A DNA stretch of 64,000 nucleotides, taken from NCBI GenBank assembly GCA_049680625.1, contig JBAUID010000151.1:4738-68737 (forward strand). Reading direction: 5' to 3'. The first letter of the stretch is position 1. Every line of letters starts with the position of its first letter. Shown one piece after another: positions 269 through 33,762 of this stretch. Both the position numbers and the translations under genes were made by a program. The notes under the pieces were generated by a model. The model ran no database searches, was not told the DNA's origin, and saw only the letters and a list, made by a program, of their open reading frames with translations. This DNA comes from Burkholderiaceae bacterium (GTDB taxonomy: Bacteria > Pseudomonadota > Gammaproteobacteria > Burkholderiales > Burkholderiaceae_E).

Positions 269-1885
269 ATGAATCGACCAGAAAAACTCTCGTCGGTTTC
301 GTCGATTCTGGGCGACTTAATTCATACCCACGAGTCAAGCCCGTTCGAAATAGAGAGTCTCGAAAAAGCACCTACCCTGCCCGGCTCGCAGCCCAAGACT
401 GACAAAGCGTTCGAATCAAAATCACTGTTCGGGGAAATCCTCGACTTCATGCTGGCGCCGCTACTGCTGGTATGGCCACTGACCATCGTCATCACATTAA
501 TTGTTGCCCGCTCTCTGGCCGATGCACCGTATGACAAAGCGCTACACGATAAAACGCTGCTGCTGAGCCAACAGGTACAGTTTCGACACTCCGGGGACAA
601 ACTCGTGCCCTACGTGCCGCCCTCTGCCCATGAGTTGATTGCCAGTGACAATAAAAACCTGCGCTACCAGGTGCGCGATTCAAGCGGTCTGCCGATTTTC
701 GGAGAAGCCAAACTGCCCAGTCCGTCCTTGTACGACTACCCCGACCTCGGACAGGTCAGCTTTCGCACGATCCCGTTTAACGATCAAGACCTGCGAATCG
801 CTTATACCTATGTGCCAAAGGCTGATGCGCTGAGCCAGGGAAATCCCGTTCTGATTCAAATAGCCGAGGGTTTTGAACAACGCAACCAGTTAGCGAACAG
901 CATCATCAAGGGGGTCATCATTCCACAGTTTTTTGTGCTGCCGATCGCCGCCGCCCTGGTGTGGTTCGGACTGGCCAGAGGGTTGCGCCCGTTACGTGGC
1001 CTGAGAGATCGGATTCGCAGTCGCCGTCCTGATGACTTGTCACCTATTGATCCACAAAGTGCCCCACATGAAATTGTGCCGCTGGTCGAATCCTTCAACG
1101 AATTACTTGGCCAGCTGAACAACAATCTGCACAATCAGCGACGCTTTATCGCGGATGCCGCGCACCAAATGAAAACGCCACTGGCTGGTATTCGTATGCA
1201 AGCAGAACTTGCACTGCGCGAGACCGATCAGGACGAACGTAACCGTAGTCTGAAACAACTCGCACGCAGTTCAGAGCGCGCATCACATTTGATCAATCAA
1301 ATGCTGGCACTGGCCCGAACAGAAAATCTGACCGAAACAACCCGGTTCGAACGAACCGATTTAAACGACGTAGTGCGCGAGATAATAACCGAACTGGCCC
1401 CAATGGCAGTCAATGCCGATCTTGACCTCGGATTTGAAGCCAGCCCGAGCCCGGCCTGGATTCGTGCCAATTCGATTCTACTGGGTGAGCTGACTCAGAA
1501 TCTGACGACCAATGCCATTCGATACACACCAGCGGGTGGTGTTATCAACGTGGTTGTCAGCCAGGCAATGGATATCGTTTCACTGACTGTTGAAGACAAT
1601 GGCCCGGGCATCCCGGTGGCGGCGCGCGAAGAAGTTTTCTCGCGCTTTTATCGTCTCCGGGACCGCCTGGACAACAATGAAGAAGAGGCCCGGGGCAGTG
1701 GCCTCGGACTGGCAATCGTTCGTGAAATTGCCCGTTTACACCAGGCCAGAATCAATGTCTCGGACGGGCTTGCCTGGCCACGGGGTCGGGGAGCGGGGGT
1801 TGGTGCCGCCTTTGTGGTGCATTTTGATCGAATTGACCCTCAATCGCTAAAAATGGGCTTTGACAGTGCGCGATCGCATCGCTAG
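269..1885 (+). CDS. Two-component sensor histidine kinase (periplasmic sensor, HAMP, HisKA, HATPase_c; TctE/QseC-like)
   Basis: ATG at 269. Two TM segments flank a roughly 150-aa periplasmic region. H-box FIADAAHQMKTPL, N-box LTTNAIRYTP, G-boxes VEDNGPGIP and GSGLGLAIV. Confidence 0.85.
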   Translation: MNRPEKLSSVSSILGDLIHTHESSPFEIESLEKAPTLPGSQPKTDKAFESKSLFGEILDFMLAPLLLVWPLTIVITLIVARSLADAPYDKALHDKTLLLSQQVQFRHSGDKLVPYVPPSAHELIASDNKNLRYQVRDSSGLPIFGEAKLPSPSLYDYPDLGQVSFRTIPFNDQDLRIAYTYVPKADALSQGNPVLIQIAEGFEQRNQLANSIIKGVIIPQFFVLPIAAALVWFGLARGLRPLRGLRDRIRSRRPDDLSPIDPQSAPHEIVPLVESFNELLGQLNNNLHNQRRFIADAAHQMKTPLAGIRMQAELALRETDQDERNRSLKQLARSSERASHLINQMLALARTENLTETTRFERTDLNDVVREIITELAPMAVNADLDLGFEASPSPAWIRANSILLGELTQNLTTNAIRYTPAGGVINVVVSQAMDIVSLTVEDNGPGIPVAAREEVFSRFYRLRDRLDNNEEEARGSGLGLAIVREIARLHQARINVSDGLAWPRGRGAGVGAAFVVHFDRIDPQSLKMGFDSARSHR

Positions 1886-1888
1886 TAT
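1860..1888 (+). promoter_or_regulatory. Sigma70-type promoter for the downstream tRNA (TTGACA, 17-bp spacer, TAGTAT), embedded in the 3' end of the kinase gene
   Basis: TTGACA at 1860-1865, exact 17-bp spacer, TAGTAT at 1883-1888 (this includes the kinase stop TAG). The tRNA 5' end lies 11 nt downstream. Confidence 0.55.
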
Positions 1889-1898
1889 TTCGCCCTTC

Positions 1899-1975
<77 letters not shown>

Positions 1976-2205
1976 ATATTTTCCAGCTATTTCTGGCTGC
2001 GCCTGGCATCGGCGGGCCCGCATAGGCTGAATCGGCCGCACCGGCCGGCCCGGTAACCCTGCAACCTGGGAAAGTCAGCTTTTGTTGCCTGACAGTCCAG
2101 CGACCAACCGATTGATATCATCAGTCGGTACAGTGGCAACCGAAATTTCCCGGAACTCCGGGCCGGAAAGCCTGAAGTCGAACCCGCTTGCGGTATCCTC
2201 TCGTC

Positions 2206-2553
2206 ATGAAATATCCCCTGATTGTGATCCGGCTTACCCAGTTCCTGTTGGTCGGCCTAATTTCGCTGGCTATCCCGGCAGGCTATGCCCTTGCCCAGGC
2301 CAGGGCTCTGCCGGCTGAAGCCAGAACCGGCAACCTGACCATGGGCGTTTTTCCGGTTGCTGCGGTTAATGGCAAACCTGTCCGCTTCTCTCCTGGCGCC
2401 CGCATACTGAACCAAGCCAATCAGCTGGTCCTGCCCGCGAGCGTTACCGGCAAAGTGCCGATAGCCTACATTCTTGATTTTCAGGGTCAGATCAAGCAAG
2501 CGTGGTTAGTATCAAATGCGGAAATCACCGCGCTCAATCGACGCAAGCGATAG
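2206..2553 (+). CDS. Hypothetical secreted protein (about 115 aa)
   Basis: ATG at 2206 gives [32 protein letters not shown], a signal-peptide-like N-terminus. The ORF ends 9 nt before miaB. I recognise no family. Confidence 0.45.
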
Positions 2554-2561
2554 GCCCGACA

Positions 2562-3896
2562 ATGGCACGCAAGTTATATATCAAGACATTCGGTTGTCAG
2601 ATGAATGAATACGATTCTGACAAAATGGCCGATGTTCTCAATGACGATGAAGGTATTGTCTCCGTTGAAAAAATGGAAGATGCTGACATCGTGCTCTACA
2701 ACACGTGTTCGGTTCGGGAAAAAGCTCAGGAAAAAGTATTTTCCGACCTCGGCAGGGCCCGCGCACTAAAAGAGAAAAATCCCAGCCTGGTAATTGGTGT
2801 GGGTGGCTGTGTTGCGAGCCAGGAAGGTGAATCAATCATCAGCCGTGCACCGTTTGTCGACCTCGTGTTTGGCCCCCAAACATTGCATCGCCTGCCCGCT
2901 ATGATTTCAACGGCAAAACGAACCGGCAAAGCTCAGGTTGATATCAGTTTTCCTGAAATCGAAAAATTTGATCACCTGCCTCCGGCGCGAGTCGATGGAT
3001 GTAAAGCGTTTGTATCCATCATGGAAGGATGCAGTAAATACTGCAGCTTTTGTGTTGTCCCTTACACCCGCGGCGAAGAGGTCTCGCGGCCTCTGGCAGA
3101 TATCCTGACCGACGTCGCAGAACTGGCCGACCAGGGAGTCCGGGAAGTCACTTTGCTCGGGCAAAATGTCAACGCCTGGGTTGGTCCTTTTGAGGGTAGT
3201 TCCGATGTCACCGAGGCGGATTTTGCCACCCTGCTTGAATTTGTCTGTGATATTCCCGGGATCGAGCGCATTCGTTATACAACGTCTCACCCGCGCGAGT
3301 TTGGTAACCGCCTGATCCAGGCACACGCCCACCTGGACAAACTACCGCAACATGTTCACCTGCCGGTACAAGCTGGTTCGGATCGAATTTTGTCAGCAAT
3401 GAAGCGCGGCTATACCAGCCTGGAATTCAAGTCGATTGTGCGCCGCCTGCGAAACGCCTGCCCCGACATCGCGATTTCATCAGATTTCATTGTTGGCTTT
3501 CCTGGCGAAACTGAAGCTGATTTCGAGCAAACAATGAATCTGGTTCGTTCAGTTGGCTTTGATTCTTCGTTCAGTTTTATCTACAGCCCCCGCCCTGGCA
3601 CACCGGCGGCTAACCTACCCGATGACACGCCCCATTCGGTCAAACTGGAGCGTCTGCAACGCCTGCAAGCCGAAATTACTGCGAACGCCGCCGCCATCAG
3701 CGATGCCATGGTTGGCAGTATTCAACCGGTTCTGGTGGATGGTTTGTCAAAAAAGAGCAACGCCCAGGTCAGCGGCAGGACCGGAAACAATCGCATTGTT
3801 AATTTTGACGGTGACCCATCTCTCATCGGGTCAATGGTCAATATCAAAATTACCGAAGCCCTGCCTCATTCGTTGCGTGGTGTTCCATGCGAATGA
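2562..3896 (+). CDS. miaB: tRNA-2-methylthio-N6-dimethylallyladenosine synthase (radical SAM methylthiotransferase)
   Basis: N-terminus [19 protein letters not shown], radical SAM motif [16 protein letters not shown]-terminal TRAM domain. The ATG at 2562 fits the family N-terminus better than the longer ORF start at 2502. Confidence 0.95.
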
Positions 3897-5314
3897 ACGG
3901 GATACGGCCAGCGACGAATAAGTTTTTTGTCGCTGCCTTCCTGACCCTGGTCATTGGCCTGCCAGTTCAGGCCTCCTCGTTTTTCAAAAACGAATCGGTT
4001 GCCCAGCTTTCTATCGACAAAAAGAATGCACCGACAAGCCAGGTGGAAAAAACAGCTTACGAATCGCCATTCGCCCAACTACTCCGTTCAGCGCGGCGGC
4101 TGATAGAAATTCGGCAATACGATCTGGCCTACGAGGCCCTCAACGAACGGATCAATTTCTATGCCGGCGATGTTGAGTACGACTACCTGCTTGGCATTGC
4201 CGCTCTGGAAAATGACCGCCCGTCCGAGGCAATTCTCGCGCTTGAGCGAGTATTGATCAATGACCCGCAGCATCTTCAGGCCCGGGCCGAAATTGCCCGC
4301 GCCTACTTGCAGGTACGTGAAAACACGACGGCGCGACGCGAATTCGAGGCGGTTGCAGCGCAAAACTTACCACCCGAAGTCGACGCAGTTGTTGCCCGAT
4401 ATATCGACGCACTGTCGCGAGTAAAAAATCAACCGGATTCACGCATCACTTACACCATAGTTTTGCAATCGGGTTATGACAACAACGTCAATATCGGCAG
4501 TGCGCAAAATAGCTGGCTATTGTCTGACGGCACCCAGGTTCTGCCACTTGGGCAAAATCGTCCACGTAAGTCGGCCCTTTTGGGCGTTGGAGGCGGTATT
4601 GATATAGCCACTCCGATCAACGGCAGGCTGCAGTGGATAACTGGTCTGCACGGTATGCTCCACAGATACCCGAGCGCGCATACACTGGACCAAGAGCAGG
4701 TCGACATCTCGACCGGACTCGCCTATCGGAAAGATTGTCACCAATTTAAAATGCTTGGCCAGATGCAAACACTTCGTGTAGACGGCGGCTCGTTTCGAAA
4801 CGCAGCCGGCGTTGTCGGGCAATGGCAGTGCGATTTAAGCGCGCGCCAACAGCTCGGCGGTTTCGCTCAGCGCTTTGAACTCCGGTTTCCGGATGCCCAG
4901 GCGCGCGATGCATCACGCCAGTCACTGGGTGTTTCATTTGCCCAGAAATTGCCGACAAGCGCCATCTTCCTGAGCACTGTGCATTTGGGCAGAGAGTATT
5001 CCCGGGCGGGCCTCGACAACCTCAGTTTTGATTTCACGGGTATCCGCATGTTGCTGTCCGCTCCAATCTTTGCAGATTGGACCGGTTCATTAGGCTTCAA
5101 TTGGGAAGAGCGCCGTTTCGACGGCGCCGAACCGCTATTCGGGGTTACGCGCCACGACTGGCAAACGGAATTAACACTGGGCCTAGAAAGCGCCCTCGAT
5201 GAGAACTGGACTTTGCAACCAGAATTAGTCCTGACTCGAAATCGATCGACGCTCGCACCCAGCGACTACCGCCGAACCCGGGCTCAACTCGTCGCACGCT
5301 ACCGACTTCAGTAG
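3887..5314 (+). CDS. Outer-membrane protein with N-terminal TPR region and C-terminal beta-barrel (architecture of Slam / DUF560 type 11 secretion translocators)
   Basis: Signal peptide ...LPVQA/SS. TPR-like helices at about aa 60-165 ([43 protein letters not shown]...). Then about 290 aa of alternating amphipathic strands beginning [18 protein letters not shown]. The start overlaps the miaB stop. Confidence 0.6.
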
Positions 5315-5325
5315 GTCGCGGCGCC

Positions 5326-7269
5326 GTGGTCAGCCACGCACAGGGCTTCCTGCAACGGATGGCCCGACAATCTGTCGTTGGGCGAACCTATAGCCAGATC
5401 TCTGGCGTGCTTTTCAGCCTGCTGCTGGCATTTCCGACGCTTTGTCTTGCTCAGGCTGGCGCAATCGTCGCCACTGCGGGTGACAATTCTGTCGTTCGTG
5501 CGCAAGCAGTAATTACCCCGCTTAAACCCGGTATTGCCGTACAACAAGGCGACAGTATTGTTACTGCCCCTGCCGGCCGCCTACAGGTTCGATTCGCAGA
5601 CGGCGCTTTTCTCTCGATGCAGCCCAATACCCGGTTTCAGATTGATGAGCACCGCTTTAGCAATAACGAGGAGCGCAGCTTTTTATCGTTATTACGCGGT
5701 GCAATCCGTATGGCCAGCGGCTTGATTGGCAAACGCACAAACGAAGACTTCAAGCTCAACACGCCGTCGGCCACCATTGGTATTCGTGGAACACATTTTG
5801 TAGTTGAACACACTGTTTGTGATCCGTTGTGCTCTCCAGGCACCAGTCCGGGCACAAGAATCGCAGTGACCGAAGGGCGAGTTATCGTGTCAAACGACAG
5901 CGGAACAATCGAACTGGGCCAAAACGAATCGGCCCTGATCGAAAACCATAGCAGCCTGCCCCAGTTTATCCAATGGAAGCCACAACTCACGCCACGTTCA
6001 ATTGAACTACCCGCCGGACCACCCGGACAGCCCTCGGCCCCGGCAGCCCCGGGCAGGACTGAGTTGAACATTCCTGCGACCAGCTCTCCAACCGATCAAC
6101 CCATTGATAGCCGCACCCCATTCTCACGCTGGGTAGATGACCCTCCGCGTGTTGCCCGCGACCGGCAACGCGCCGAGAATCCCGTGGGTTCACCACGGCT
6201 GGGTTTCGAACTTGACCGCCCGCTGCCGCTACCCAACCCGGCCGAAAGTGCCCGGCGTGATGCAAACGGACAGTTCCCCGAACTGGCAACACTAGCACCA
6301 AACGATCCGGACACCGATGACAGCGATCATAGGGGTGACAACACCGGCGACAACGGTAGCAACAGCGGAAGCGGTAGCAACAGCGGTAGCAATAGCGGCG
6401 GCGACTACGACAACGGAAATTCGGGTGGTGATGACAGCGGCCGCAACGACAGCGGCGAAGAACCAATTGATGATATTGCCAGCCCGACACCGCCACCGTC
6501 GAACCCCGGGCCGTCATCCGGCCCAACCGATGCAAGCGGCTGGCTGATCAGTTTGCAACCGATTCCCGGCACGATTCACAACGGATTAATTGCCGGCGAT
6601 AACCTGCTGACCTTTGACGACAACCTCGGCCTGCAGTCGATTGGACACTGTGACGCTGGCATTTGCCTGTCACGCGGCAGCGCTAAGCTGGCTGAAGCAG
6701 GGCATGATGATTACGCAGCCTGGGGCCGATGGACCAATGGCAATATGGATGTTGTCGTGTTTGGACTGCGAACCGCCGTGGCACTAAGTGCCAACGAAGG
6801 AATGCATTACATCACCGGCGCGCCGGCGCTGAGTTTGCCGGCAAGTGGCGCATTTACCTATAACCTGACTGCCGCGACCGCACCGACGATGTCGCATGAC
6901 TGGTATACCCCGGGTAGCTTTAGTGGCCGCGCCGCGGTGCAATTTGCGCCTGGTGTTGCCCCAAGAGTCGGGCTATCTGGCCAGGTTAACCTGGCCGGTG
7001 ACCAGTTTCAATTCAGCACTGCTGGCGGAGCCGAGAATCCAGCCGCAAGCCAGCTGAGCCTGAATAACAATCAACAGTTCAGCGGTCTTGTAACTGCAAC
7101 CGGCAGTGGCACCAATCTGCCGTGGATGTGTGGTTCTCATGGGTGCAGCACCCAGATTCGGGGCGCATTATTCGGTCCAACCGGCGAGCGTCTCGGCTTG
7201 TCGTACACAATCCGCAGCGAAAGCGCCTCGACTACAATTGACGGTGTCAGTATATTTAGCCGTCCCTAA
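5326..7269 (+). CDS. Secreted FecR-domain protein with low-complexity linker and TbpB/fHbp-like C-terminal beta-barrel domain (candidate Slam cargo)
   Basis: GTG at 5326 or ATG at 5359. Signal peptide ...LAFPTLCLAQA. FecR-like block RLQVRFADGAFLSMQPNTRFQIDEHRF...LLRGAIRMASG...IGIRGTHFVV. P/S/G/N/D-rich linker. C-terminal pattern AWGRWTNG, GAFTYNL, GRAAVQF, LSGQVNL, IRGALFGPTGERLGLSY. Confidence 0.6.
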   Translation: MVSHAQGFLQRMARQSVVGRTYSQISGVLFSLLLAFPTLCLAQAGAIVATAGDNSVVRAQAVITPLKPGIAVQQGDSIVTAPAGRLQVRFADGAFLSMQPNTRFQIDEHRFSNNEERSFLSLLRGAIRMASGLIGKRTNEDFKLNTPSATIGIRGTHFVVEHTVCDPLCSPGTSPGTRIAVTEGRVIVSNDSGTIELGQNESALIENHSSLPQFIQWKPQLTPRSIELPAGPPGQPSAPAAPGRTELNIPATSSPTDQPIDSRTPFSRWVDDPPRVARDRQRAENPVGSPRLGFELDRPLPLPNPAESARRDANGQFPELATLAPNDPDTDDSDHRGDNTGDNGSNSGSGSNSGSNSGGDYDNGNSGGDDSGRNDSGEEPIDDIASPTPPPSNPGPSSGPTDASGWLISLQPIPGTIHNGLIAGDNLLTFDDNLGLQSIGHCDAGICLSRGSAKLAEAGHDDYAAWGRWTNGNMDVVVFGLRTAVALSANEGMHYITGAPALSLPASGAFTYNLTAATAPTMSHDWYTPGSFSGRAAVQFAPGVAPRVGLSGQVNLAGDQFQFSTAGGAENPAASQLSLNNNQQFSGLVTATGSGTNLPWMCGSHGCSTQIRGALFGPTGERLGLSYTIRSESASTTIDGVSIFSRP

Positions 7270-7304
7270 GCCTGCACAGCCCAGGCCAACCAACCGGGTT
7301 ATTA

Positions 7305-8327
7305 GTGAACAACCAGAATATCGTAGTGAAGAACCAAACGATCGCATTTTCTCCGGAACCACTCGATAACAAGCGCCTGGCCAACCTGTGTGGCGCTCTG
7401 GATGCCAATATCAGGCAAATCGCCGAAACCCTGGAAGTCAAGATTGGACGACGTGCCAATAAGTTCTCGATTCAGGGAGATCCAGTTAAGGCTGAGCGGG
7501 CCCGCCAGGCTCTGGATCGGTTTTATCAACAGGCAAGCGATCCTCTGAACAGTGAAGATATCCAGCTCGAGTTAATCGACCTGACTCACAGCCCGGCTCA
7601 AGCGGAGAATGACGCCGGTGGCGCAAAAAGCGCCAGAGACGCCAGTGACGAATCACCCACCCTGCACACGCGACGAACCGATCTGCAAGGTCGCACCCCC
7701 AAACAGCGTGAATACCTGCGCAACATCGTCTCACACGATGTAACTATCGGTATTGGGCCAGCCGGTACCGGCAAAACCTATCTGGCCGTTGCCTGTGCCG
7801 TAGACGCACTCGAGCGCGAATCCGTCAAACGCATCGTATTGACCCGGCCTGCCGTCGAAGCCGGTGAGCGCCTGGGATTCCTGCCCGGCGATCTGGCGCA
7901 AAAAGTTGATCCGTATTTGCGACCGCTATACGACGCTTTGTACGACTTGATGGGAGTCGAAAAAACTCAACGGATGTTTGAGAAACAAGTCATCGAAATT
8001 GCCCCGCTTGCTTATATGCGTGGCCGCACGCTGAATCACGCTTTTATCATCCTTGATGAAGCGCAGAACACCACACCAGAACAAATGAAAATGTTCCTGA
8101 CCCGACTGGGCTTTGGCTCGCGCGCAGTAGTAACCGGTGATACCTCGCAAATTGATTTACCGCGCGGTCAACCCTCGGGTCTGATTCAAGCCTGTCGGAT
8201 ACTGCAATCCGTGCCGGGGATAGCGCAGACTGAATTTTCATCCAGAGATGTTGTCCGCCACCCATTGGTTGCCCGTATTGTTGATGCCTATGCCCGCGAA
8301 GAAACTGGCCTGCGAGAAAGAGGTTAA
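7305..8327 (+). CDS. ybeZ: PhoH-like ATPase (YbeZ)
   Basis: GTG start. DNKRLANLCG...NIRQIAE N-terminal motif, Walker A GPAGTGKTYLA, Walker B FIILDEAQN, and VVTGDTSQIDLP. Confidence 0.9.
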   Translation: MNNQNIVVKNQTIAFSPEPLDNKRLANLCGALDANIRQIAETLEVKIGRRANKFSIQGDPVKAERARQALDRFYQQASDPLNSEDIQLELIDLTHSPAQAENDAGGAKSARDASDESPTLHTRRTDLQGRTPKQREYLRNIVSHDVTIGIGPAGTGKTYLAVACAVDALERESVKRIVLTRPAVEAGERLGFLPGDLAQKVDPYLRPLYDALYDLMGVEKTQRMFEKQVIEIAPLAYMRGRTLNHAFIILDEAQNTTPEQMKMFLTRLGFGSRAVVTGDTSQIDLPRGQPSGLIQACRILQSVPGIAQTEFSSRDVVRHPLVARIVDAYAREETGLRERG

Positions 8328-8772
8328 TCAATCGTATCGCCTGAAGCTGAGCATTCAGTACGCAGGCTCAGTGCGGATCGCACCGTTGACCGAACGCGGT
8401 CTGCGAGCCATAGCCAAAGCAAGCCTGGAATCGAACTTCGATGTCACGATTCGCTTTGTTCCGCGTGCTGAAGCACAGGCCCTGAATCACAGTTACCGGG
8501 CCCGCTCGTATACGCCGAATGTCCTGACTTTTTCGTACCTCCCGCAAGCCAGCGCAGACATTGTCATCTGTACCCCGGTGGTACGTGAGCAGGCAAAAGA
8601 GCAAGGGAAAACCTTTGCCGGGCACCTGGCTCACTTAGTTGTTCACGGCATGTTGCACGCTCAGGGCTATGACCATCAATCCGATTGCCAGGCCAGAGCC
8701 ATGGAAAGCCGGGAACAGGCGATTTTGGCTGGATTTGGCATTGCCGACCCCTACCGGGTAGCACCCAAGTGA
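8284..8772 (+). CDS. ybeY: rRNA maturation endoribonuclease YbeY
   Basis: Zinc motif HLVVHGMLHAQGYDH, plus NHSYRARSYTPNVLTF. The only canonical in-frame starts are ATG 8284 and ATG 8290, which overlap the phoH 3' end by about 40 nt. Confidence 0.85.
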   Translation: MPMPAKKLACEKEVNQSYRLKLSIQYAGSVRIAPLTERGLRAIAKASLESNFDVTIRFVPRAEAQALNHSYRARSYTPNVLTFSYLPQASADIVICTPVVREQAKEQGKTFAGHLAHLVVHGMLHAQGYDHQSDCQARAMESREQAILAGFGIADPYRVAPK

Positions 8773-8785
8773 GCCGCCACCGAGG

Positions 8786-8845
8786 CTGCCGGCCGGGCCG
8801 CCAAAGGAACTGCCGGCCGGGCCGCCAAAGGAACTGCCGGCCGGG
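8786..8845. repeat. 24-bp perfect tandem repeat, about 2.5 copies (CTGCCGGCCGGGCCGCCAAAGGAA)
   Basis: Copy 1 at 8786-8809, copy 2 at 8810-8833, partial copy at 8834-8845 running into a G7 tract. It lies in the ybeY-corC intergenic spacer. Confidence 0.85.
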
Positions 8846-8933
8846 GGGGCAATCGGTTGATTTCTTACAGGGCTGGTGCGTTTGGCCGGTCTTGGGTTAT
8901 CCTGACGCCTGTCGCAGCCGATCAACATGCTAG

Positions 8934-9809
8934 ATGTCTGACCCTCCGCAAGGGACGGAAACCCGAAAACCCTTAATCGAACGCCTTAGTGCCATGTTTA
9001 TGGCCGAGCCTGAAGACCGGGGGCAACTGCTCGAAATCCTTCGAAGTGCGCAGGCGCGCGAGCTTATTGACGCCGAAGCCTTATCGATGATCGAAGGGGT
9101 CATGCAGGTTTCGGAACTGGCGGTTCGCGACATCATGGTGCCGCGCTCACAAATGGACGTGATTGATATCAGTGTTCCGGCTGATTCTTTCATGCCCCAT
9201 GTGATCCAGACCGCGCATTCGCGTTTTCCGGTCGTCGAGAACGATCGCGACAACGTGCTGGGTATCCTGCACGCGAAAGAGCTATTACGTCTCGGGCAAG
9301 ACCCGAATGTTGACGTCCGAGACCTGCTCCGACCCGCGGTGTTTGTCCCGGAATCGAAACGGCTCGATGTCTTGCTAAAAGACTTTCGCCTGAATCGGAA
9401 CCATCTGGCCATTGTGGTCGATGAATACGGCGGCGTATCCGGATTGGTCACGATCGAAGACGTTCTGGAACAGATTGTTGGCGAAATCGAAGACGAATTC
9501 GATTTTGACGAAGAAAGTGATCATATCGTCGCCATCGAAGATAACGGCATCGAACGCCGCTACCGGGTATCGGCGATCACCGAAATCGACCGCTTTAACG
9601 ATGAATTTGGCACCAGCTTCCCGGATGATGAATTTGATACGATCGGCGGATTAATCACAGACCAGTTTGGCCGCGTTCCCCGACGCGGCGAAACTGCCGA
9701 ACTCGAAGGGCTTCGCTTCGAAGTGTTGCGTGCTGATCCGCGCCAGCTCCAAATGCTGTTGGTTGAGCGCGTTTTAAGCAAACCCCCGAATTCCGGAGCA
9801 CCAGGCTGA
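8934..9809 (+). CDS. corC: CorC/YbeX-family magnesium/cobalt efflux-associated protein (CBS pair plus CorC_HlyC domain)
   Basis: Tandem CBS domains (VRDIMVPRSQMDVI..., HLAIVVDEYGGVSGLVTIEDVLEQIVGEIEDEFD) and a transporter-associated C-terminal domain. It holds the expected position in the ybeZYX-lnt block. Confidence 0.85.
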   Translation: MSDPPQGTETRKPLIERLSAMFMAEPEDRGQLLEILRSAQARELIDAEALSMIEGVMQVSELAVRDIMVPRSQMDVIDISVPADSFMPHVIQTAHSRFPVVENDRDNVLGILHAKELLRLGQDPNVDVRDLLRPAVFVPESKRLDVLLKDFRLNRNHLAIVVDEYGGVSGLVTIEDVLEQIVGEIEDEFDFDEESDHIVAIEDNGIERRYRVSAITEIDRFNDEFGTSFPDDEFDTIGGLITDQFGRVPRRGETAELEGLRFEVLRADPRQLQMLLVERVLSKPPNSGAPG

Positions 9810-9826
9810 AAAAAAAGCGCGATGAG

Positions 9827-11503
9827 TTGCCGGGACAACCGGCCCGCTCCGAGCTCAGCTTTAATCTGGCAGCATTGTTTCTCGGCCTATTGCAGGCATT
9901 GAGTTTTGCTCCGCTTGCCCTGGGTTTGCTTCAGACCCTGTCATTCAGCGGCCTGTGCCTGTTAATCTTGTTTCGCCCGGACCGGGCTGGCATGCTCGCA
10001 TGGTTGTTCGGTCTGGCAACGTTTTCAGCTGGACTAAGCTGGATGTTTATCAGCATGCATCGCTTTGGCGGCATGCCGTCCCCAATGGCAGCCTTGGCCG
10101 TGGTTCTGCTGTCGTCTTACCTCGCCTTGTTTGGCGCCGTCGCATGGCGCCTGGCGATCTCAGCCGGTGGTATCACTGGCAACCACGGCAACGGTGCCGC
10201 CGGTTTCTATTCGTTGCCCCTGATCATCGCCGCCTTTTGGGTGCTCGGCGAAATGGCCCGCGGCATTTTACTCACCGGCTTCCCATGGTTATCAATTGGT
10301 TACGCCCATGTTGACAACCCGCTTAGCGGCACAGCTGCATGGGCCGGGGTCTACGGCATCAGTGGCATTGCCGTCCTGATCAGTGCTCTGCTCGCCCGGC
10401 TGATTCACCACCTCATACAGCAGCGGATGCAAAAAAAACAACCCGATGTGGCAATACCGGAAACATCGCTTCGCCAGGAGGTCGGACCCACGACATTCGG
10501 GTCAACGTCGCTAACGACGCGACTGACCCGATCGACGATGATGCCCGCATTGACGATCTTAATGGCGATTCTGATGATCATCGGGGTGTCGGTATTAGCA
10601 GGTCAACAAGCGTTTTCAACAAATGACGGTAAACCTGTTTCCGTTCGACTATTGCAGGGGAACGTCGAACAACAACTGAAGTTCGATCCAGGCCGCACAC
10701 TTCGTGCGATGCGCGATTACATCGCCCTGGTTCGCCAGGCACCGGCACAACTCTATGTGCTACCAGAAACTGCGTGGACAGTTGGCCTGGCACAAACGCC
10801 GCCCCAAATACTGTCCAGCTTAAGCGCATATTTACGGAAAAACGGGGGGCTCTTTGCAACCGGTATCCCGGTACGCGAGCCAAGCCCACAGGGACAAAAT
10901 CCGTACCGCCTGACCAACAGTGTCGTCACCCTTGACGCCAATCTTGAGATCACGGCCCGTTATAACAAGCGCCACCTGGTTCCGTTTGGCGAATTTATTC
11001 CCCCTGGGTTTCGATGGTTCGTCGACATGATGCATATACCCTTGGGCGACTTTGACAGGGGTGGTCGTCAACAGCCCCCGTTGGTTCTAGATGGCCGACG
11101 GGTCGCGTTTAATATCTGCTACGAAGACTTATTTGGTGAAGAGCTCGCTGTACAGGTTCGTGACGGCGCCAATCTGTTGATCAACGTTAGCAACATTGGA
11201 TGGTTTGGTCAGTCCCATGCGCTACCCCAGCACCTGAACATCTCCCGATTGCGGGCCATGGAATTTCAACGCCCGATGTTGCGCTCAACAAATACCGGGG
11301 TCACAGCCCACATCGGGCCAAGTGGCCGGGTCCTGGCACAATTGCCCGTCTACCAACACGGTGCTCTGGACGTGAATGTCCAGCCGATGACGGGCCTGAC
11401 CCCGTTTGCGCGATACGGGCTGTGGCTACCCACCACACTGGCGGTGATACTGCTGCTTACGGGCACAATGATGCAATTGATCGGCCCCCGCAAAACCGAC
11501 TGA
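9827..11503 (+). CDS. lnt: Apolipoprotein N-acyltransferase
   Basis: TTG start. Multi-TM N-terminal half, then a CN-hydrolase domain with VLPETAW, KRHLVPFGEFIP, NICYEDLFGEE. Conserved position after corC. Confidence 0.9.
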   Translation: MPGQPARSELSFNLAALFLGLLQALSFAPLALGLLQTLSFSGLCLLILFRPDRAGMLAWLFGLATFSAGLSWMFISMHRFGGMPSPMAALAVVLLSSYLALFGAVAWRLAISAGGITGNHGNGAAGFYSLPLIIAAFWVLGEMARGILLTGFPWLSIGYAHVDNPLSGTAAWAGVYGISGIAVLISALLARLIHHLIQQRMQKKQPDVAIPETSLRQEVGPTTFGSTSLTTRLTRSTMMPALTILMAILMIIGVSVLAGQQAFSTNDGKPVSVRLLQGNVEQQLKFDPGRTLRAMRDYIALVRQAPAQLYVLPETAWTVGLAQTPPQILSSLSAYLRKNGGLFATGIPVREPSPQGQNPYRLTNSVVTLDANLEITARYNKRHLVPFGEFIPPGFRWFVDMMHIPLGDFDRGGRQQPPLVLDGRRVAFNICYEDLFGEELAVQVRDGANLLINVSNIGWFGQSHALPQHLNISRLRAMEFQRPMLRSTNTGVTAHIGPSGRVLAQLPVYQHGALDVNVQPMTGLTPFARYGLWLPTTLAVILLLTGTMMQLIGPRKTD

Positions 11504-11730
11504 AAACCCCACAAGCGGGCGGGTCGCGTAGAATCGCTGGTTCAATTTTCATCGGCAGCCTGAGGCCGTCCGAGGGCGGGATTAACGAGTCTGGTCACAA
11601 ACTGTGCCCAGAACGAATCCAATCTGTCGAGACTGCCCAGAAAACAGGATCGGCAACAATGGCCACTATAGTGATAGCACCTGGGCGATAGCATCACAGC
11701 AATGACTTCCACGGCAATAACACCACAGCA

Positions 11731-12663
11731 ATGACCACAACGGCGACAAAATCCAGATCGGGCGTAAGAACCCGCACACCAAGCTTTCAGCAAACCATCC
11801 TGCAACTGCAGGATTACTGGAATGGGCACGGCTGCGCCTTGCTCCAGCCTTATGATATGGAAGTTGGCGCGGGCACCTTTCATACCGCCACCTTCCTGCG
11901 ATCAATCGGGCCCGAACCGTGGCGTGCCGCTTATGTTCAACCGTCGCGGCGACCAAAAGATGGCCGCTATGGGGACAACCCGAATCGCCTGCAACACTAC
12001 TACCAATTCCAGGTCGTGCTGAAACCGTCACCACCCGAGATTCTTGATTTGTATCTGGGTTCACTCAAAGCCATTGGGATCAACTCGCAGACCAACGACA
12101 TTCGCTTTGTTGAAGATGACTGGGAGTCCCCAACTCTGGGTGCATGGGGTCTTGGCTGGGAAGTGTGGCTTAACGGCATGGAAGTGACCCAGTTTACTTA
12201 TTTCCAGGAAGTCGGATCGCTTCGCTGCGAACCGGTTACTGGCGAAATCACTTATGGACTTGAGCGTCTTGCCATGTATTTGCAGGGAGTCGAAAGCGTT
12301 TACGACCTGCAGTGGACAGACAATATGACATACCGGGATGTCTTTCATCAGAATGAAGTTGAACAGTCGACGTACAACTTCGAGATAGCCGATACAGCGA
12401 TGCTGTTCCGTCACTTTGATGAATACGAAACCCAGTTTGGCGCATTAATTGAAAAACAACTCGCCCTACCCGCTTACGAAATGGTTATGAAGTGCTCACA
12501 CACGTTTAATTTACTGGATGCACGCGGCGCAATTTCGGTTACCGAAAGAGCCGCTTACATTGGCCGGGTTCGAGCGATGTCACGAGCTGTTGCCCAAGCC
12601 TATTATGATTCCCGCGAACGTCTCGGTTTTCCGATGCTTGTCGATCAGACCAAAGCCGGCTGA
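11731..12663 (+). CDS. glyQ: Glycine--tRNA ligase alpha subunit
   Basis: [61 protein letters not shown]. Confidence 0.95.
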
Positions 12664-12700
12664 TTGATATGACTAATACAAACATTTCAAGTCACCTCTT

Positions 12701-14830
12701 ATGACAGCGCAACCGCTTCTGATCGAACTGTCAACCGAAGAACTGCCGCCCAAGGCCTTGCAACGCCTTGGCGCCGCATGGGCAACAGCATTGGTCAAAG
12801 AACTGAGCCGTCATCACCTGGTCAGCGCGGATGCCAGGTACCAGGTTTTTGCATCACCCCGCCACCTGGGTGCACGAATAGAAGCAGTCAGCCCCGAGGG
12901 AGCACAACGCGAAGTCCGCCTCAAAGGACCATCTGTCAACGTGGGGCTGGACACCAACGGGGAGCCAACGGTTGCTCTTAACAAATGGGCCGAAAAACAA
13001 GGGGTTGCCCTAGCCGACCTTCAGCGCGAAAAATCAGGCAAACAAGAGAATTTTTTTGCTGTCAAGACAGTCGCCGGCGCGCAGCTGTCAAAAGTCATTA
13101 ATGAGGTGATTGAAACTGCAATCAATGCTCTGCCCATTCCCAAGTTAATGCAATACCAACTGTCCGACGGACACACGACAATCAGTTTTGTCCGCCCGGC
13201 TCATCACCTGATTGCTCTGCACGGAAGCGACGTCATTAACGCCAGCGCGCTTGGCCTGAAGGCCGGGCGCCACACGTACGGGCATCGCTTTACCGGCGCA
13301 ACCGTCAGCGACGACGCACCGGACCGGCCCATCCAGGTAGAAATTGACCACGCTGCCAATTACGAATCGGCTATGCGCGAAGCCCGGGTACTCGTAGATT
13401 TTAATGAACGTCGAACCCTTATTGAGACCCAGTTGCACAAACAAGCTGACAGCCTTGGATTTAACCTTGGCAATCAGCAGGAAAGCGCTCAGTTGCTTGA
13501 CGAAGTCACTGCCCTGGTTGAATGGCCCGCCGTATACGTGGGCACCTTCGAGGAAAAATACCTGCAAGTACCGCCGGAATGCCTGATTCTGACGATGCGT
13601 ACTAACCAGAAATACTTCCCGCTGTTCGACGGCAACGGTAGGCTGACAAATAAATTCCTGATTTGCTCGAACCTGCAGGTTGATGACCCATCGCTAATTA
13701 TTGATGGGAACGAACGGGTTGTCCGGCCAAGGCTTGCTGACGCCGAATTCTTTTTCAACCAGGATCGAAAGACCACGCTGAGCGATCGCTGTGATCGTCT
13801 GAATGCCGTTGTTTACCACGCAAAGCTCGGGTCGCAGGCGCAGCGCAGCGAACGGGTCAGCCAGCTGGCCACTCAGATTGCGACGATGCTGGGGCTGAGC
13901 GATCAGGACAAAGCAATGTGCAAAACTGCCGCGCTTTTGGCGAAAACAGATTTGCTAACCGATATGGTCGGTGAGTTTCCCGAGTTACAGGGAATTATGG
14001 GCACTTACTACGCCAGAAACGACGGCGAACCCGATGCAGTTGCCAGGGCGATGACGGAACAATATCAGCCACGCTTTGCCGGTGATGAATTGCCGCAAAC
14101 CCAGGTTGGTACTGTTTTGGCGCTGGCGGACAAACTGGAAACCCTGGCTGGTTTATTCTCTATCGGCCAGCGCCCAACCGGAGATAAAGACCCGTTTGCC
14201 CTGAGGCGCCACGCGCTTGGCGTGCTTCGCATGCTAACCGAAAAGAAGCTGCCCGTATCGTTAACTGAGATGCTTCAAAATGCGGGCAAGTTGTTCAGCA
14301 TGGACGCGGACAGCATGCGTGCACTAACCGACTTTGTGTACGAACGCCTGATCGGCTACCTGCGCGAGGCCGGCCATGTACCGGGGCAAATACAGGCCGT
14401 CGTGGAACAGAGACCAGATAAGATGGACCAGATAAACGAACGCCTGGCCGCTGTAGCCGAGTTCAGTCGGATGCCCGAATCGCAAGCCTTGGCATCTGCC
14501 AACAAACGTATCGGAAATATCCTTCGCAAATCTGACGACAAGCTGTCTGCGCAACCTGACCCGACTTTATTTGAGTTGGATGCTGAAAGAGCATTGTTTG
14601 ACACTATTAATAAACTCAGCGGACAGGTTGAAGAAGCCGTCTGTCATGGCAAATTCACCGAAGCCATGTCGCTCATGGCGCAGGCTCGCGAACCGGTCGA
14701 TCGATTCTTCGACGATGTTATGGTGATGGCTGAGGATAAAGCTGTCCGTGAGAATCGACTTCTGATGCTGCGATCAATGCACCAGATGATGAACCGGGTT
14801 GCTGACATCTCAAGGCTGGCAGGCAATTGA
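12701..14830 (+). CDS. glyS: Glycine--tRNA ligase beta subunit
   Basis: LLIELSTEELPPKAL N-terminus, 709 aa, immediately after glyQ. Confidence 0.95.
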   Translation: MTAQPLLIELSTEELPPKALQRLGAAWATALVKELSRHHLVSADARYQVFASPRHLGARIEAVSPEGAQREVRLKGPSVNVGLDTNGEPTVALNKWAEKQGVALADLQREKSGKQENFFAVKTVAGAQLSKVINEVIETAINALPIPKLMQYQLSDGHTTISFVRPAHHLIALHGSDVINASALGLKAGRHTYGHRFTGATVSDDAPDRPIQVEIDHAANYESAMREARVLVDFNERRTLIETQLHKQADSLGFNLGNQQESAQLLDEVTALVEWPAVYVGTFEEKYLQVPPECLILTMRTNQKYFPLFDGNGRLTNKFLICSNLQVDDPSLIIDGNERVVRPRLADAEFFFNQDRKTTLSDRCDRLNAVVYHAKLGSQAQRSERVSQLATQIATMLGLSDQDKAMCKTAALLAKTDLLTDMVGEFPELQGIMGTYYARNDGEPDAVARAMTEQYQPRFAGDELPQTQVGTVLALADKLETLAGLFSIGQRPTGDKDPFALRRHALGVLRMLTEKKLPVSLTEMLQNAGKLFSMDADSMRALTDFVYERLIGYLREAGHVPGQIQAVVEQRPDKMDQINERLAAVAEFSRMPESQALASANKRIGNILRKSDDKLSAQPDPTLFELDAERALFDTINKLSGQVEEAVCHGKFTEAMSLMAQAREPVDRFFDDVMVMAEDKAVRENRLLMLRSMHQMMNRVADISRLAGN

Positions 14831-17609: not shown

Positions 17610-18566
17610 CTAACCCGAATTGCCGGCCGGCAATGCCTTTGCATCGGTCAGGCGTTGAGCCATCAAAAAATAGAGTTCGGCCGGAATTTGTTCGGCCCGC
17701 AACGTAGGCTCGATCTCGTCATGGACCACCGCCCTGGACCTGAGCCAGGGCAACAAGGTTGTGCGCAACATCTTGCGGCGCTGACTAAAAGCGACCGCCA
17801 GCAATGCCTGCAGATCACTGGCATCGGTTACAAGAGGCTGAGCGCGGGTGCGCATTCGAACCACGGCAGATTCAACCCGCGGCGGTGGCGTAAAAACATG
17901 AGCAGGCACGTCAAGAACTGAGTCACATCGGTAAAACGCCTGCAACAAGATGCCCAGCCGGCCAAAATCAGCCCCCCGGCTCGCGACGATTCGGTTGACC
18001 ACTTCCTTTTGCAGCATGAAATGCTGGTCCAGAACCTGTTCCCGACACTCAATCAGCCGGACCAACAACGGTGTCGATATGTTATATGGAAGGTTACCGA
18101 CAAGCCGCGCCTGGCCTGGCATCGTGAGGCTGACCCAATCCGCCTTGAGGGCATCTTCTTGAATCAGGTGCAGCCGCTGCGGCGGGTGCCTCTCGCGCAG
18201 CCGGGCAGCAAGGTCGCGGTCTAATTCCACAGCGGTGAGCCTGGAAACCCGGTCGATGAGCTCATCAGTCAATGCGCCAAGCCCAGGGCCAATTTCGATT
18301 AAGTACTCTCCTGATTGCGGGTTTATCTGATCAATCAGGTCACCAATCAGCTGACGGTCAGTAAGAAAGTGTTGTCCAAATCGCTTGCGGGCACGATGCC
18401 CTGACAGCGTGGCTTTTCCCGATGATTGATTATTCAGGCCGCAATTCCACGTAAGTTCGATCGCGCAATTCAGCCCGCCACTCCTGGAAGGCGTCAGCGA
18501 TACGTTTTTTGGCAATTTCCTGGCGTGCCATAAGGCGCTGACGTTCTTCGGAAGCGCCATCTTCAC
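17610..18566 (-). CDS. rsmA: 16S rRNA (adenine1518/1519-N6)-dimethyltransferase
   Basis: RKRFGQHFL, SAM motif IEIGPGLGALT, GNLPYNIST. The conserved core begins near 18410. The only canonical in-frame starts (ATG 18566 and 18560) overlap surA by about 135 nt, so the true start is unresolved. Confidence 0.85.
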   Translation of the reverse strand: MKMALPKNVSALWHARKLPKNVSLTPSRSGGLNCAIELTWNCGLNNQSSGKATLSGHRARKRFGQHFLTDRQLIGDLIDQINPQSGEYLIEIGPGLGALTDELIDRVSRLTAVELDRDLAARLRERHPPQRLHLIQEDALKADWVSLTMPGQARLVGNLPYNISTPLLVRLIECREQVLDQHFMLQKEVVNRIVASRGADFGRLGILLQAFYRCDSVLDVPAHVFTPPPRVESAVVRMRTRAQPLVTDASDLQALLAVAFSQRRKMLRTTLLPWLRSRAVVHDEIEPTLRAEQIPAELYFLMAQRLTDAKALPAGNSG

Positions 18567-19791
18567 GCCGCTCGATTAACTGAATCAGGTGAAAGCCAAA
18601 CTGAGTTCGAACCGGCTGACTCATTTCGCCAGGCGATAGGGCATTCATTGCACGCTCAAATGCCGGTACGGTGTCACCGGGGTATACCCAACCGAGGTTC
18701 CCCCCGCGACCAGCACTACCATCAGATGAGTACTGGCGCGCCATATCTTCGAACTTGGCATTGCCCGCTTCGATTCGATCGCGAATCCCCTCAAGACGAC
18801 GCACAATCTCTGCCTCACCTACCCCGTCTTCAGGTCGAATCAAAATATGCCGAACCTGTGACTGCACCACCGGCGGGCCGCTCGGCACCCCGGCACCCTT
18901 GCGCACTTCGATAAGGTTAAGAATATGAAACCCTGCCGGACTCCGAATCAGGTCAGATAACTCACCAGCCTGCAACTTGCGAACTTCAGTGGCAAAAATC
19001 TCAGGCAGATCTTTCATGACTCGCCAGCCCAGCTGGCCACCAGGTACCGGTGATCCGTCAGCCACCACGGCCGCAAAGTCTTCGCCTGCCTTCGCTCGGG
19101 ATAGCAAGGCCGTTATCTGTGATTTTTTTTCTGCCACAACATCGTCACCGGACTGCTCCGGAACCCGGACAAATATCTGTTGAACGTTGTATTGGGGCTG
19201 CAAACCATCGCTACCGGACTGAGCCAGCAAATACGCATCAATATCGGCATCACTAACACTGATACGCGGTTGAATTATCGTTTCTCGAAGTCGCGCCCGC
19301 ACTATCTGGTTTCGAATATCAGCCCGGAAGGCATCGATACCAATGCCTTCGGAAGAAAGCCGCTCCACCATCTGGGAAGTGGTCAGTTTGTTGTCCCTGG
19401 CAATCGAATCGATCGCCTGCTCCACTTGTTGATCAGTGACCTTAATGCCGATTTCCCGTGCATGTTGGTTTTCAGCGCGCTCGAGAATAAGCACTTCCAT
19501 CATTTCGCGCCGCAAGCTGGCATCATTGCCAACCGGCTGGTTTCGCGCTTTGAGCTGGTTCACCGCCATATCAAGCCGCCCGTTAAGCTCACCCTCTGTA
19601 ATGACTTCGTCGTTCACAACGGCTATTACCCGGTCGACAGGTCGAACACCGTCAGCATAAGACGGTGTTATCAGTACATCCCAGCCGGCCGGAACTGCCA
19701 GGGACACTGCAATCATTGCAGCAATCAAAATTGCCGGCCGAAAACTCTGGGCAAGGCGGCTCAAGGAAAAAACTGGCTTATTGGTAAACAC
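18430..19791 (-). CDS. surA: Periplasmic chaperone / peptidyl-prolyl isomerase SurA
   Basis: Signal peptide, SurA N-domain (DRVIAVVNDEVITEGEL), two parvulin domains (...GGQLGW..., ...GGNLGWVYPGD...). Confidence 0.9.
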   Translation of the reverse strand: MFTNKPVFSLSRLAQSFRPAILIAAMIAVSLAVPAGWDVLITPSYADGVRPVDRVIAVVNDEVITEGELNGRLDMAVNQLKARNQPVGNDASLRREMMEVLILERAENQHAREIGIKVTDQQVEQAIDSIARDNKLTTSQMVERLSSEGIGIDAFRADIRNQIVRARLRETIIQPRISVSDADIDAYLLAQSGSDGLQPQYNVQQIFVRVPEQSGDDVVAEKKSQITALLSRAKAGEDFAAVVADGSPVPGGQLGWRVMKDLPEIFATEVRKLQAGELSDLIRSPAGFHILNLIEVRKGAGVPSGPPVVQSQVRHILIRPEDGVGEAEIVRRLEGIRDRIEAGNAKFEDMARQYSSDGSAGRGGNLGWVYPGDTVPAFERAMNALSPGEMSQPVRTQFGFHLIQLIERREDGASEERQRLMARQEIAKKRIADAFQEWRAELRDRTYVELRPE

Positions 19792-22174: not shown

Positions 22175-22440
22175 CGGCCTGATGGCGCTCTTAGTGGCAT
22201 CCGTGAAGGCATCCCTGTGGCATTGGTGACAGCATTCTTAGCGGTATTTGTTCTGGCTTGATAAAGACTTGGAAACGACTTAGAAATGACTCAAAAAAAC
22301 TTTTCCTGCTGCCACGTGCTGGCGATTCAGACGGCAGAGCAGGCTGGACCGGAATCAATTACCTGCACATCAACAAAGCTTACCCCTGTCGGAAGGCGTC
22401 AATCGGGCAGTTGGCGCTTATTATAAGAACAGGAGCCGAA

Positions 22441-33743: not shown

Positions 33744-33762
33744 GTCGCCGGTTAACTTCCTG

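Follow-up and report, generated by a model that had tools for sequence, protein, structure and literature searches.

A predicted type 11 secretion pair, a Slam-family translocator with a FecR-domain cargo, between miaB and phoH of a marine Burkholderiaceae bacterium

Secretion through outer-membrane proteins of the Slam (DUF560) family, the type 11 secretion system (T11SS), has been characterised in translocator-cargo pairs. In the pairs of subcluster 1B, soluble cargo proteins with a type I signal peptide (HrpC, hemophilin) are secreted by their translocators, and the C-terminal barrel of the cargo is the proposed targeting element (PMC8406197; PMC12282271). The nine DUF560 clusters outside cluster 1 are reported to have no characterised members (PMC8406197); they come mostly from water and soil bacteria, and their cargo is unknown (PMC8406197; PMC12282271). 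The cargo catalogue of Grossman et al. 2025, which covered clusters 1 and 3 only, describes a variable N-terminal effector, a β-strand pedestal and a C-terminal 8-stranded barrel, in hemophilin-like, TbpB-like, fHbp-like, LbpB-like, disordered-N-terminus, Pls-like, Sphingomonas and Psychrobacter architectures, and it also contains disordered N-terminal regions and multi-barrel forms (PMC12282271). Here we describe a candidate pair of this kind, orfA and orfB, from a 64,000-nucleotide stretch of DNA, hereafter the window (positions 4,738 to 68,737 of the forward strand of contig JBAUID010000151.1, assembly GCA_049680625.1). The source organism is a marine Burkholderiaceae bacterium seen in sediment, macroalgae and seawater metagenomes.

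Like the subcluster 1B pairs HrpB/HrpC of Xenorhabdus nematophila, Hpl of Haemophilus haemolyticus and HphA with its Slam, the locus encodes a DUF560 outer-membrane protein with TPR helices and a predicted 14-stranded barrel (OrfA) beside a putative cargo (OrfB) that appears non-lipidated and carries a type I signal peptide and a predicted C-terminal handle with an 8-stranded barrel. Unlike in those pairs, OrfA is from a divergent clade of environmental Betaproteobacteria and only just exceeds the SlipAM threshold, no TonB or TonB-dependent receptor partner accompanies the two genes, and OrfB adds a FecR-type N-terminal domain (N-domain) of ~170 aa and a disordered linker of ~170 aa, its barrel family having a WGRW...HY signature of its own and being mostly missed by PF01298. 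The translocator family and the 8-stranded C-terminal cargo barrel are shared with Neisseria Slam1/Slam2 and their cargo TbpB, LbpB, fHbp and HpuA. Unlike the Neisseria cargo, OrfB has no lipobox, a single handle-barrel lobe instead of two and no known host ligand, and it belongs to a free-living marine bacterium. The order of effector, pedestal and barrel in the catalogue of Grossman et al. is also that of OrfB, whereas a FecR-type domain is found in none of its roughly ten architectures and FecR is not mentioned there (PMC12282271).

In our judgement orfA and orfB quite probably constitute a functional translocator-cargo pair of the T11SS, with secretion assigned by homology. Both proteins would enter the periplasm via Sec on type I signal peptides, and OrfA would form a 14-stranded DUF560 barrel in the outer membrane, its TPR domain facing the periplasm. 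OrfB would be its dedicated non-lipidated cargo, recognised through the handle and barrel and carried to the cell surface, and the FecR-type N-domain, tethered by the flexible linker, would form the variable "effector" end on the standard T11SS model. By analogy with the characterised pairs we infer that OrfA translocates OrfB and that the barrel serves as the targeting signal. A first-pass annotation of this DNA had proposed such a pair, and its proposal is supported by the DUF560 score, the cargo-type barrel and the synteny described below.

The first-pass annotation had placed two genes between miaB, whose stop is at 3896, and phoH, which starts at 7305, and both open reading frames (ORFs) are indeed found there on the + strand. 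The first, orfA (3887..5314, 475 aa), encodes a T11SS/Slam-family outer-membrane protein. Its product is identical (100%) to P0121, a 473-aa protein of a Burkholderiaceae metagenome-assembled genome (MAG), for which NCBI takes the second ATG, at 3893, as the start, and some of its homologues are named "surface lipoprotein assembly modifier" or "DUF560 domain-containing protein" by NCBI. PF04575 (SlipAM/DUF560) matches aa 259-465 of OrfA with 28.2 bits against a gathering cut-off of 22, and it matches 20 of the 24 aligned homologues with a best E-value of 7.6e-11. TPR matches fall at aa 100-171, where TPR_19 passes its cut-off and TPR_16 lies just under, and other Pfam models (DUF2860, Omp85) stay below threshold. 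The Pfam models of BcsC, PgaA and YaiO gave no match in OrfA or its 23 aligned homologues, which agrees with the earlier assignment of the barrel to DUF560.

The AlphaFold2 (AF2) models of both proteins are predictions from shallow alignments (24 sequences for one, 31 for the other), and the signal peptides of OrfA, OrfB and their family were judged by eye. In the OrfA model, with a mean predicted local distance difference test score (pLDDT) of 82.5, a signal peptide (3887..3973; aa 1-29, cleavage between VQA and SS as read from the sequence) is followed by a disordered stretch, a periplasmic TPR domain (4067..4423; aa 61-179, helices with pLDDT > 90, covered by TPR_16/TPR_19) and a β-barrel (4442..5311; aa 186-475). 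This is the layout that the first reading had recognised from the sequence, with the barrel starting at the GYDNNVN segment. DSSP counts exactly 14 strands in the model, at aa 186-474 and mostly with pLDDT > 90, and 14 strands is the topology predicted for T11SS proteins (PMC8406197). Ranked by template modelling (TM) score, a Foldseek search returned 14-stranded barrels best, namely OmpG (TMt 0.72), FadL and CymA. The DUF560 barrel, the TPR helices and the 14 strands are all present, supporting OrfA as a predicted outer-membrane translocator of the Slam/T11SS family. We reject identity with BcsC, PelB or YaiO because of the strand count and the absent Pfam matches.

The second gene, orfB (5326..7269, + strand), encodes the predicted cargo, whose length is 647 aa if translation begins at the GTG at 5326 and 636 aa if it begins at the ATG at 5359. 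Searching the PDB with the single OrfB sequence found nothing, so family profiles were needed. At least 36 of the 120 FecR homologues listed share the C-terminal domain of OrfB, some of them in tandem, and a profile of 31 such domains (A1) matches 13 PDB sequences, all of which are TbpB or LbpB (best 3ve1, E = 4.8e-6). Within the A1 set, PF01298 (TbpB_B_D) matches 9 of the 31 members and the NCBIfam model NF041636 slam_lipo ("Slam-dependent surface lipoprotein") matches 15, and the homologue P0040 carries precomputed matches to both PF04773 and PF01298. Among the top 50 PDB structures returned by Foldseek for the OrfB model, the barrel region is matched only by known Slam/T11SS cargo (HphA, TbpB, hemophilin, NHBA and fHbp), with HphA (8gm3) as the top match, and the remainder are two FecR-type structures on the N-domain. 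The residues W466, R468, W469 and H494 are invariant in alignment A3, and Y495 is kept in at least 90% of the sequences. At the level of family and fold, the C-terminus of OrfB is, as modelled, a handle with an 8-stranded barrel of the TbpB/hemophilin type, in line with the 8-stranded TbpB/fHbp/hemophilin-type barrel first suggested from its motif order. An integral 8-stranded barrel like OmpX or OmpA was set aside, the profile and fold matches being exclusively to soluble TbpB-type barrels.

In the AF2 model of OrfB the N-domain is folded at aa 43-215, aa 223-391 are disordered (pLDDT ~33) and the C-terminal region is folded at aa 392-647, with pLDDT of ~80-97 in the handle and ~95 in the barrel. 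The mature protein follows a type I signal peptide (5326..5457; aa 1-44, cleavage between AQA and GA and no lipobox, read from the sequence). The N-terminal β domain (5458..5970; aa 45-215) resembles a retention module in its first part and is a FecR core in the rest, with a C-x3-C pair. It leads into a low-complexity linker rich in Pro, Ser, Gly, Asn and Asp (5971..6519; aa 216-398, disordered core 223-391), which contains a tandem repeat of 18/12 nt (6354..6398, Tandem Repeats Finder) encoding a GSNSGS run. The handle or pedestal subdomain (6520..6819; aa 399-498) bears the signatures WGRW and HY on AF2-predicted strands, and the 8-stranded barrel of the TbpB/hemophilin type (6820..7266; aa 499-647, predicted strands at 508-645) has a conserved Cys pair, C602/C607. 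The signal peptide and the FecR domain thus stand as first annotated; the linker is shorter than then estimated, at ~170 instead of ~200 aa, and the C-terminal unit longer, at ~255 instead of ~200 aa once handle and barrel are counted together.

A lipobox pattern is absent from 33 of 34 family N-termini, and the single match (P0102, position 12) lies ahead of a site between ALA and QA. Most of the 34 have AxA-type sites, while four are truncated N-terminally and a few lack a clear signal peptide. Because the lipobox is absent and most members have type I sites, the OrfB family is, judging by these N-termini, non-lipidated, a hemophilin-type passenger and not a surface lipoprotein. The type I signal peptide fits the soluble class of TbpBBD cargo (PMC8406197). 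The linker was found in all 179 family members measured, with at least ~20 residues when the pedestal is allowed for and with 59% G/A/S/T/P. Metagenome contigs break at the tandem repeat at 6354-6398, and a seawater population of ~97% identity carries 9 extra nt in frame after 6013 and departs from the window sequence across 6089-6480. Since all of these features fall in the linker, it is the fast-evolving part of OrfB.

Searched with the A1 profile, the barrel family has 2,290 representatives of 50%-identity clusters at E <= 1e-3 and 435 at E <= 1e-30. Most of the top matches are 1,000-3,350 aa long and carry 3 to 8 barrels in tandem; a FecR-type N-domain is present on 44 of the 143 newly returned proteins, and a few are lipoproteins. 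Giant multi-barrel proteins (P0241-P0383), such as P0343 with 3,351 aa and 8 barrels, likewise contain the WGRW-type barrel. Many of the giant proteins have a different N-terminus (e.g. "...DVLFSSNG..."), and some of them have lipoboxes.

The two genes are also syntenic in other genomes, from many environmental Betaproteobacteria, as the first-pass annotation had anticipated, and their adjacency is not due to chance. Searching from the side of the outer-membrane protein with the OrfA alignment (A2) and one genome per species gave 80 loci, and in 77 of them an ORF with a FecR domain starts within 400 nt after the translocator gene. The barrel of the A1 type is complete in 59 of these, 17 are cut by a contig end and one (L058) stops ~10 nt short of a contig end; the three exceptions comprise two contig ends and one insertion of 5.7 kb. 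Searching from the cargo side, with eight homologues and the contigs that encode them, confirmed the pair in 7 of 8 distinct places. It lies between miaB and phoH in L001, L002 and L003/L004, the last being from Lautropia sp. In L006, L007 and L008 the cargo gene directly follows the gene for a ~445-aa TPR protein in unrelated contexts, and hidden Markov models identify these proteins as OrfA homologues. L005 holds a pair split by inserted genes, and L009 is the only cargo-side locus without an OrfA homologue. The two genes are ~5.7 kb apart in L005:259-6001 and L032:8392-14066, and the L005 insert encodes hydantoinase A and B, a methyltransferase and a helix-turn-helix regulator.

In 37 of the 80 loci a miaB match lies directly upstream of the pair, and 22 of these reach phoH; on the longer contigs of this type ybeY, corC and lnt come next, as they do in the window. 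The housekeeping order of the window also occurs in L001-L003 and L010-L046. Loci of the miaB type include those of Burkholderiaceae MAGs, Limnobacter, Lautropia, Zeimonas arvi and Quisquiliibacterium transsilvanicum DSM 29781, and the 43 loci elsewhere include Sideroxyarcus, Gallionella, Azonexus, Dechloromonas, other Rhodocyclaceae and Polaromonas. Because the two genes stay together both beside miaB and elsewhere, the pairing is independent of genomic context. The earlier description of the pair as inserted into a housekeeping block is misleading, since the order miaB-pair-phoH is fixed across the 37 loci and is old in one multi-genus clade. We reject a recent insertion or horizontal transfer on this conservation across several genera and on the base composition of the pair, which is unremarkable apart from the linker.

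Several sister loci contain further genes or copies. A GT41 protein with TPRs (~720 aa; PF13844, 290-344 bits) is encoded after the cargo gene on the same strand in lineages where the pair is not beside miaB, in L008 (9366-11537) and in ~26 loci among L047-L089 (e.g. L047:9691-11847 and L089:9765-11921), and no homologue of it was found in the 64-kb window. This neighbourhood suggests, by analogy, a trio of translocator, passenger and glycosyltransferase like HMW1ABC. In loci of Azonexus, Dechloromonas and Rhodocyclaceae a FecR-only paralogue of ~250 aa is encoded directly upstream of the Slam-like gene (L052:6133-6885, L069:6185-6976 and L071:5800-6891, and also in L051, L058 and L064); besides a type I signal peptide and a Pro/Gln-rich tail it shares the ATIGIRGT motif, but it lacks a barrel. 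Two or three tandem cargo paralogues with FecR domain and barrel lie beside a single Slam-like gene in L063, L073, L081 and L062.

The computational tests proposed in the first-pass annotation all came out in its favour, and none of the contrary outcomes that it had named was found: the OrfA barrel did not score as another family, the OrfB C-terminus is predicted to be 8-stranded, and the genes are syntenic. Several observations nonetheless weigh against a translocator-cargo pair. The SlipAM score of OrfA is only modestly over the threshold (28.2 vs 22 bits), and the Slam-specific TPR model TPR_Slam (PF24575) gives 14 bits against a cut-off of 35.2 and matches 4 of the 24 homologues. Ranked by E-value, Foldseek places BcsC and PelBC best (2e-12 to 4e-11), at a TM-score of only ~0.3, and the fold search is not discriminating and finds only generic barrels because no Slam structure is in the PDB. 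For OrfB itself slam_lipo gives E = 0.0015 and 18.8 bits, far under the 80-bit cut-off, and the C-terminal domain searched by itself against Pfam has no match, so that it is the family profile and the predicted fold that carry the barrel assignment. A TonB-dependent receptor partner, present in most characterised T11SS loci, is missing here, which disfavours a classical hemophore or siderophore-type uptake. A search of transcription data found no RNA run with the pair region and no experimental or expression evidence. Lastly, the homologues of the N-domain (FecR and the retention modules of LapA and MpIBP) are periplasmic, which is a poor fit to a surface "effector".

The N-domain combines two likenesses. 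FecR PF04773 matches aa 76-186 with 55.5 bits against a cut-off of 24, and by Foldseek the domain superposes on the cell-surface-signalling domain of PupR (6ovk_R) and on BDI_1681 (4m0n) with an rmsd of ~3.4 Å over ~140 columns. The columns G152, R154, G155 and T156 are invariant in A3, and Gly155-Thr156 of the IGIRGT motif (5788..5793) align with the GT of E. coli FecR in an otherwise weak hhalign comparison (E = 0.083). This GT is a self-cleavage site in some FecR-type proteins (FoxR, IutY). A C-x3-C pair occurs in the N-domain of this clade. In addition, NF033682 retention_LapA ("retention module-containing protein") matches 19 of 20 family members, all below the cut-off of 50 (28.7-33.2 bits for OrfB, best E = 1.2e-9 in the family), and E. 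coli FecR does not match this model. The only significant PDB sequence match of the N-domain profile (A4) is 5ix9, the N-terminal domain of MpIBP from Marinomonas (E = 2.5e-4), which is the template for the LapA retention module, a proposed periplasmic fold that holds the adhesin in a TolC-like pore via an unstructured Gly-rich segment. Because of this similarity to periplasmic retention modules, the FecR-type N-domain of OrfB may stay in the periplasm and not be displayed.

A variant of the favoured explanation follows from this possibility, and we regard it as conceivable although rather unlikely. OrfA would export only the handle and barrel, the N-domain would act as a periplasmic plug, possibly locked by a C-x3-C disulfide and unable to pass the pore, and the linker would stay threaded through the Slam barrel, an anchoring like that of LapA and MpIBP in a TolC-like pore; the periplasmic FecR-type domain could then be a site of regulated release or signalling. 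Both the 5ix9 match and the NF033682 matches, which E. coli FecR lacks, speak for it. So does the layout, which is that of retained adhesins of the type I secretion system (T1SS), with an N-terminal plug, an ever-present Gly/Ser/Pro-rich linker and a C-terminal secretion signal, and members in which a single FecR-type N-domain precedes 3 to 8 tandem barrels resemble giant adhesins. The cargo has no lipid anchor, and the barrel-less FecR-only paralogue with its signal peptide should remain periplasmic because it has no barrel. On the other side, all retention-module scores are below the cut-off (<= 33 bits vs 50), the similarity may merely reflect a common ancestry of two β-domains, Foldseek puts the N-domain nearest to FecR-type structures and not to 5ix9, and the leptospiral FecR-domain proteins LipL45 and Lsa33, which also match, bear the annotation of surface proteins. 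How T11SS translocation works, and in which direction, is itself not established. Compared with the RTX adhesins LapA and MpIBP, the start of mature OrfB is similar in sequence to the retention module, and the order of folded N-domain, flexible Gly-rich linker and C-terminal secretion signal is shared; unlike them, OrfB would take a route through Sec and T11SS instead of the one-step T1SS, has no RTX repeats and scores under the NCBIfam cut-off. No LapB, LapC, LapE, LapG, LapD or T1SS genes were identified beside orfB in a scan of 19 window ORFs. If the variant were true, it would be the first retention-type anchoring described for a T11SS, would explain how a lipid-free secreted protein stays on the cell and would link the system mechanistically to T1SS adhesins, with the FecR-type domain in the periplasm open to regulated release or transmembrane signalling.

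That OrfA is instead a TPR-plus-barrel exporter of a polysaccharide or another non-protein substrate, in the manner of BcsC, PelB or PgaA, with OrfB as a separate periplasmic companion, is very improbable. Its best Foldseek E-values are indeed to BcsC and PelBC, PF04575 has been assigned to some PgaA homologues (PMC8406197), and glycosyltransferase genes flank the pair in sister lineages (GT41, and GT1 in L008). The TM-scores of those structural matches are low, as given above, the OrfA model has 14 strands where the PgaA homologues are 16-stranded (PMC8406197), and the BcsC, PgaA and YaiO models are unmatched throughout the aligned OrfA family. No membrane synthase is adjacent to the pair, and the invariable partner of OrfA bears a barrel known only from Slam cargo. 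The GT41 enzymes are soluble protein glycosyltransferases and not polysaccharide synthases.

Least credible of all is that OrfB is a FecR-like regulator in cell-surface signalling with the neighbouring barrel as its receptor, since the FecR domain well over threshold, the GT motif and the fold match to the C-terminal signalling domain of PupR that it shares with the FecR/PupR anti-sigma factors, and the mention of FecR among neighbouring "regulators" in the T11SS literature, are set against the cleavable signal peptide that takes the place of an anti-sigma factor's cytoplasmic domain and transmembrane helix, the weak hhalign match to E. coli FecR, and the absence from OrfB of FecR_N, FecR_C or an STN-like subdomain, a cytoplasmic anti-sigma domain and a transmembrane segment (by Pfam and sequence). 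We reject a classical anti-sigma identity on this architecture, in which the FecR-type domain directly follows the cleavable signal peptide. By Pfam, no extracytoplasmic function (ECF) sigma factor or TonB-dependent receptor was found among the 19 ORFs of the window that were scanned, and no FecI or FecA partner was found; every ORF from 269 to 14830 is accounted for, the scan beyond that taking in ten large ORFs and none of the smaller ones. No ECF sigma factor or TonB-dependent transducer is annotated next to the pair in L001-L009. The first-pass annotation had likewise held that this is not a classical FecIRA unit.

Turning from these alternatives to the setting of the proposed T11SS pair, the genes from miaB to lnt are all co-directional on the + strand. 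The order is miaB (2502..3896, a tRNA methylthiotransferase with UPF0004, Radical_SAM and TRAM), orfA, orfB, phoH (7305..8327, Pfam PhoH), ybeY (8248..8772, Pfam YbeY), corC (8934..9809, CBS/CorC_HlyC) and lnt (9827..11503, LNT_N/CN_hydrolase), with glyQ and glyS after lnt. The ATG of orfA overlaps the stop of miaB, as read from the sequence ATGCGAATGA; the gap between orfA and orfB is 12-45 nt, depending on the start chosen, and that between orfB and phoH is 36 nt. Terminator-like and promoter-like sites are not more frequent in the region than in shuffled sequence. Because starts and stops overlap or are tightly spaced and terminator-like sites do not exceed the shuffled level, orfA and orfB are probably co-transcribed with the housekeeping genes miaB, phoH, ybeY, corC and lnt. 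The base composition of the pair is unremarkable save for a rise in G+C in the linker, and no paralogue of orfA or orfB was found elsewhere in the window.

Some neighbouring features of the window may be recorded here. An ORF at 2188-2553 (121 aa, hydrophobic N-terminus, no Pfam match) immediately precedes miaB and runs past the GTG annotated as the miaB start; miaB probably begins at the ATG near 2562 instead. At 269-1885, 2 kb upstream of the pair, lies the gene for a QseC/PmrB-type sensor histidine kinase (2CSK_N, HAMP, HisKA and HATPase_c). Envelope-biogenesis genes share the region with lnt, namely surA and lptD on the - strand at 18433-22237 and, at 33727-35577, the gene for a 617-aa protein whose C-terminal domain is TonB_2.

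A literature search for DUF560 together with FecR found nothing in the collection of papers searched, and where FecR comes up in other T11SS papers, it is only as a regulator encoded nearby. The FecR-bearing cargo architecture and its pairing with a Slam-family protein thus appear undescribed, while the genes themselves are already named generically in public annotation. With the proposed pair, one environmental Slam clade gains a concrete cargo that co-occurs with its translocator almost without exception. As a self-contained unit of two genes, the locus can be transferred to E. coli, and it has cultured carriers in Zeimonas arvi and Quisquiliibacterium transsilvanicum DSM 29781. The barrel subfamily to which OrfB belongs is large and extends to giant multi-barrel proteins.

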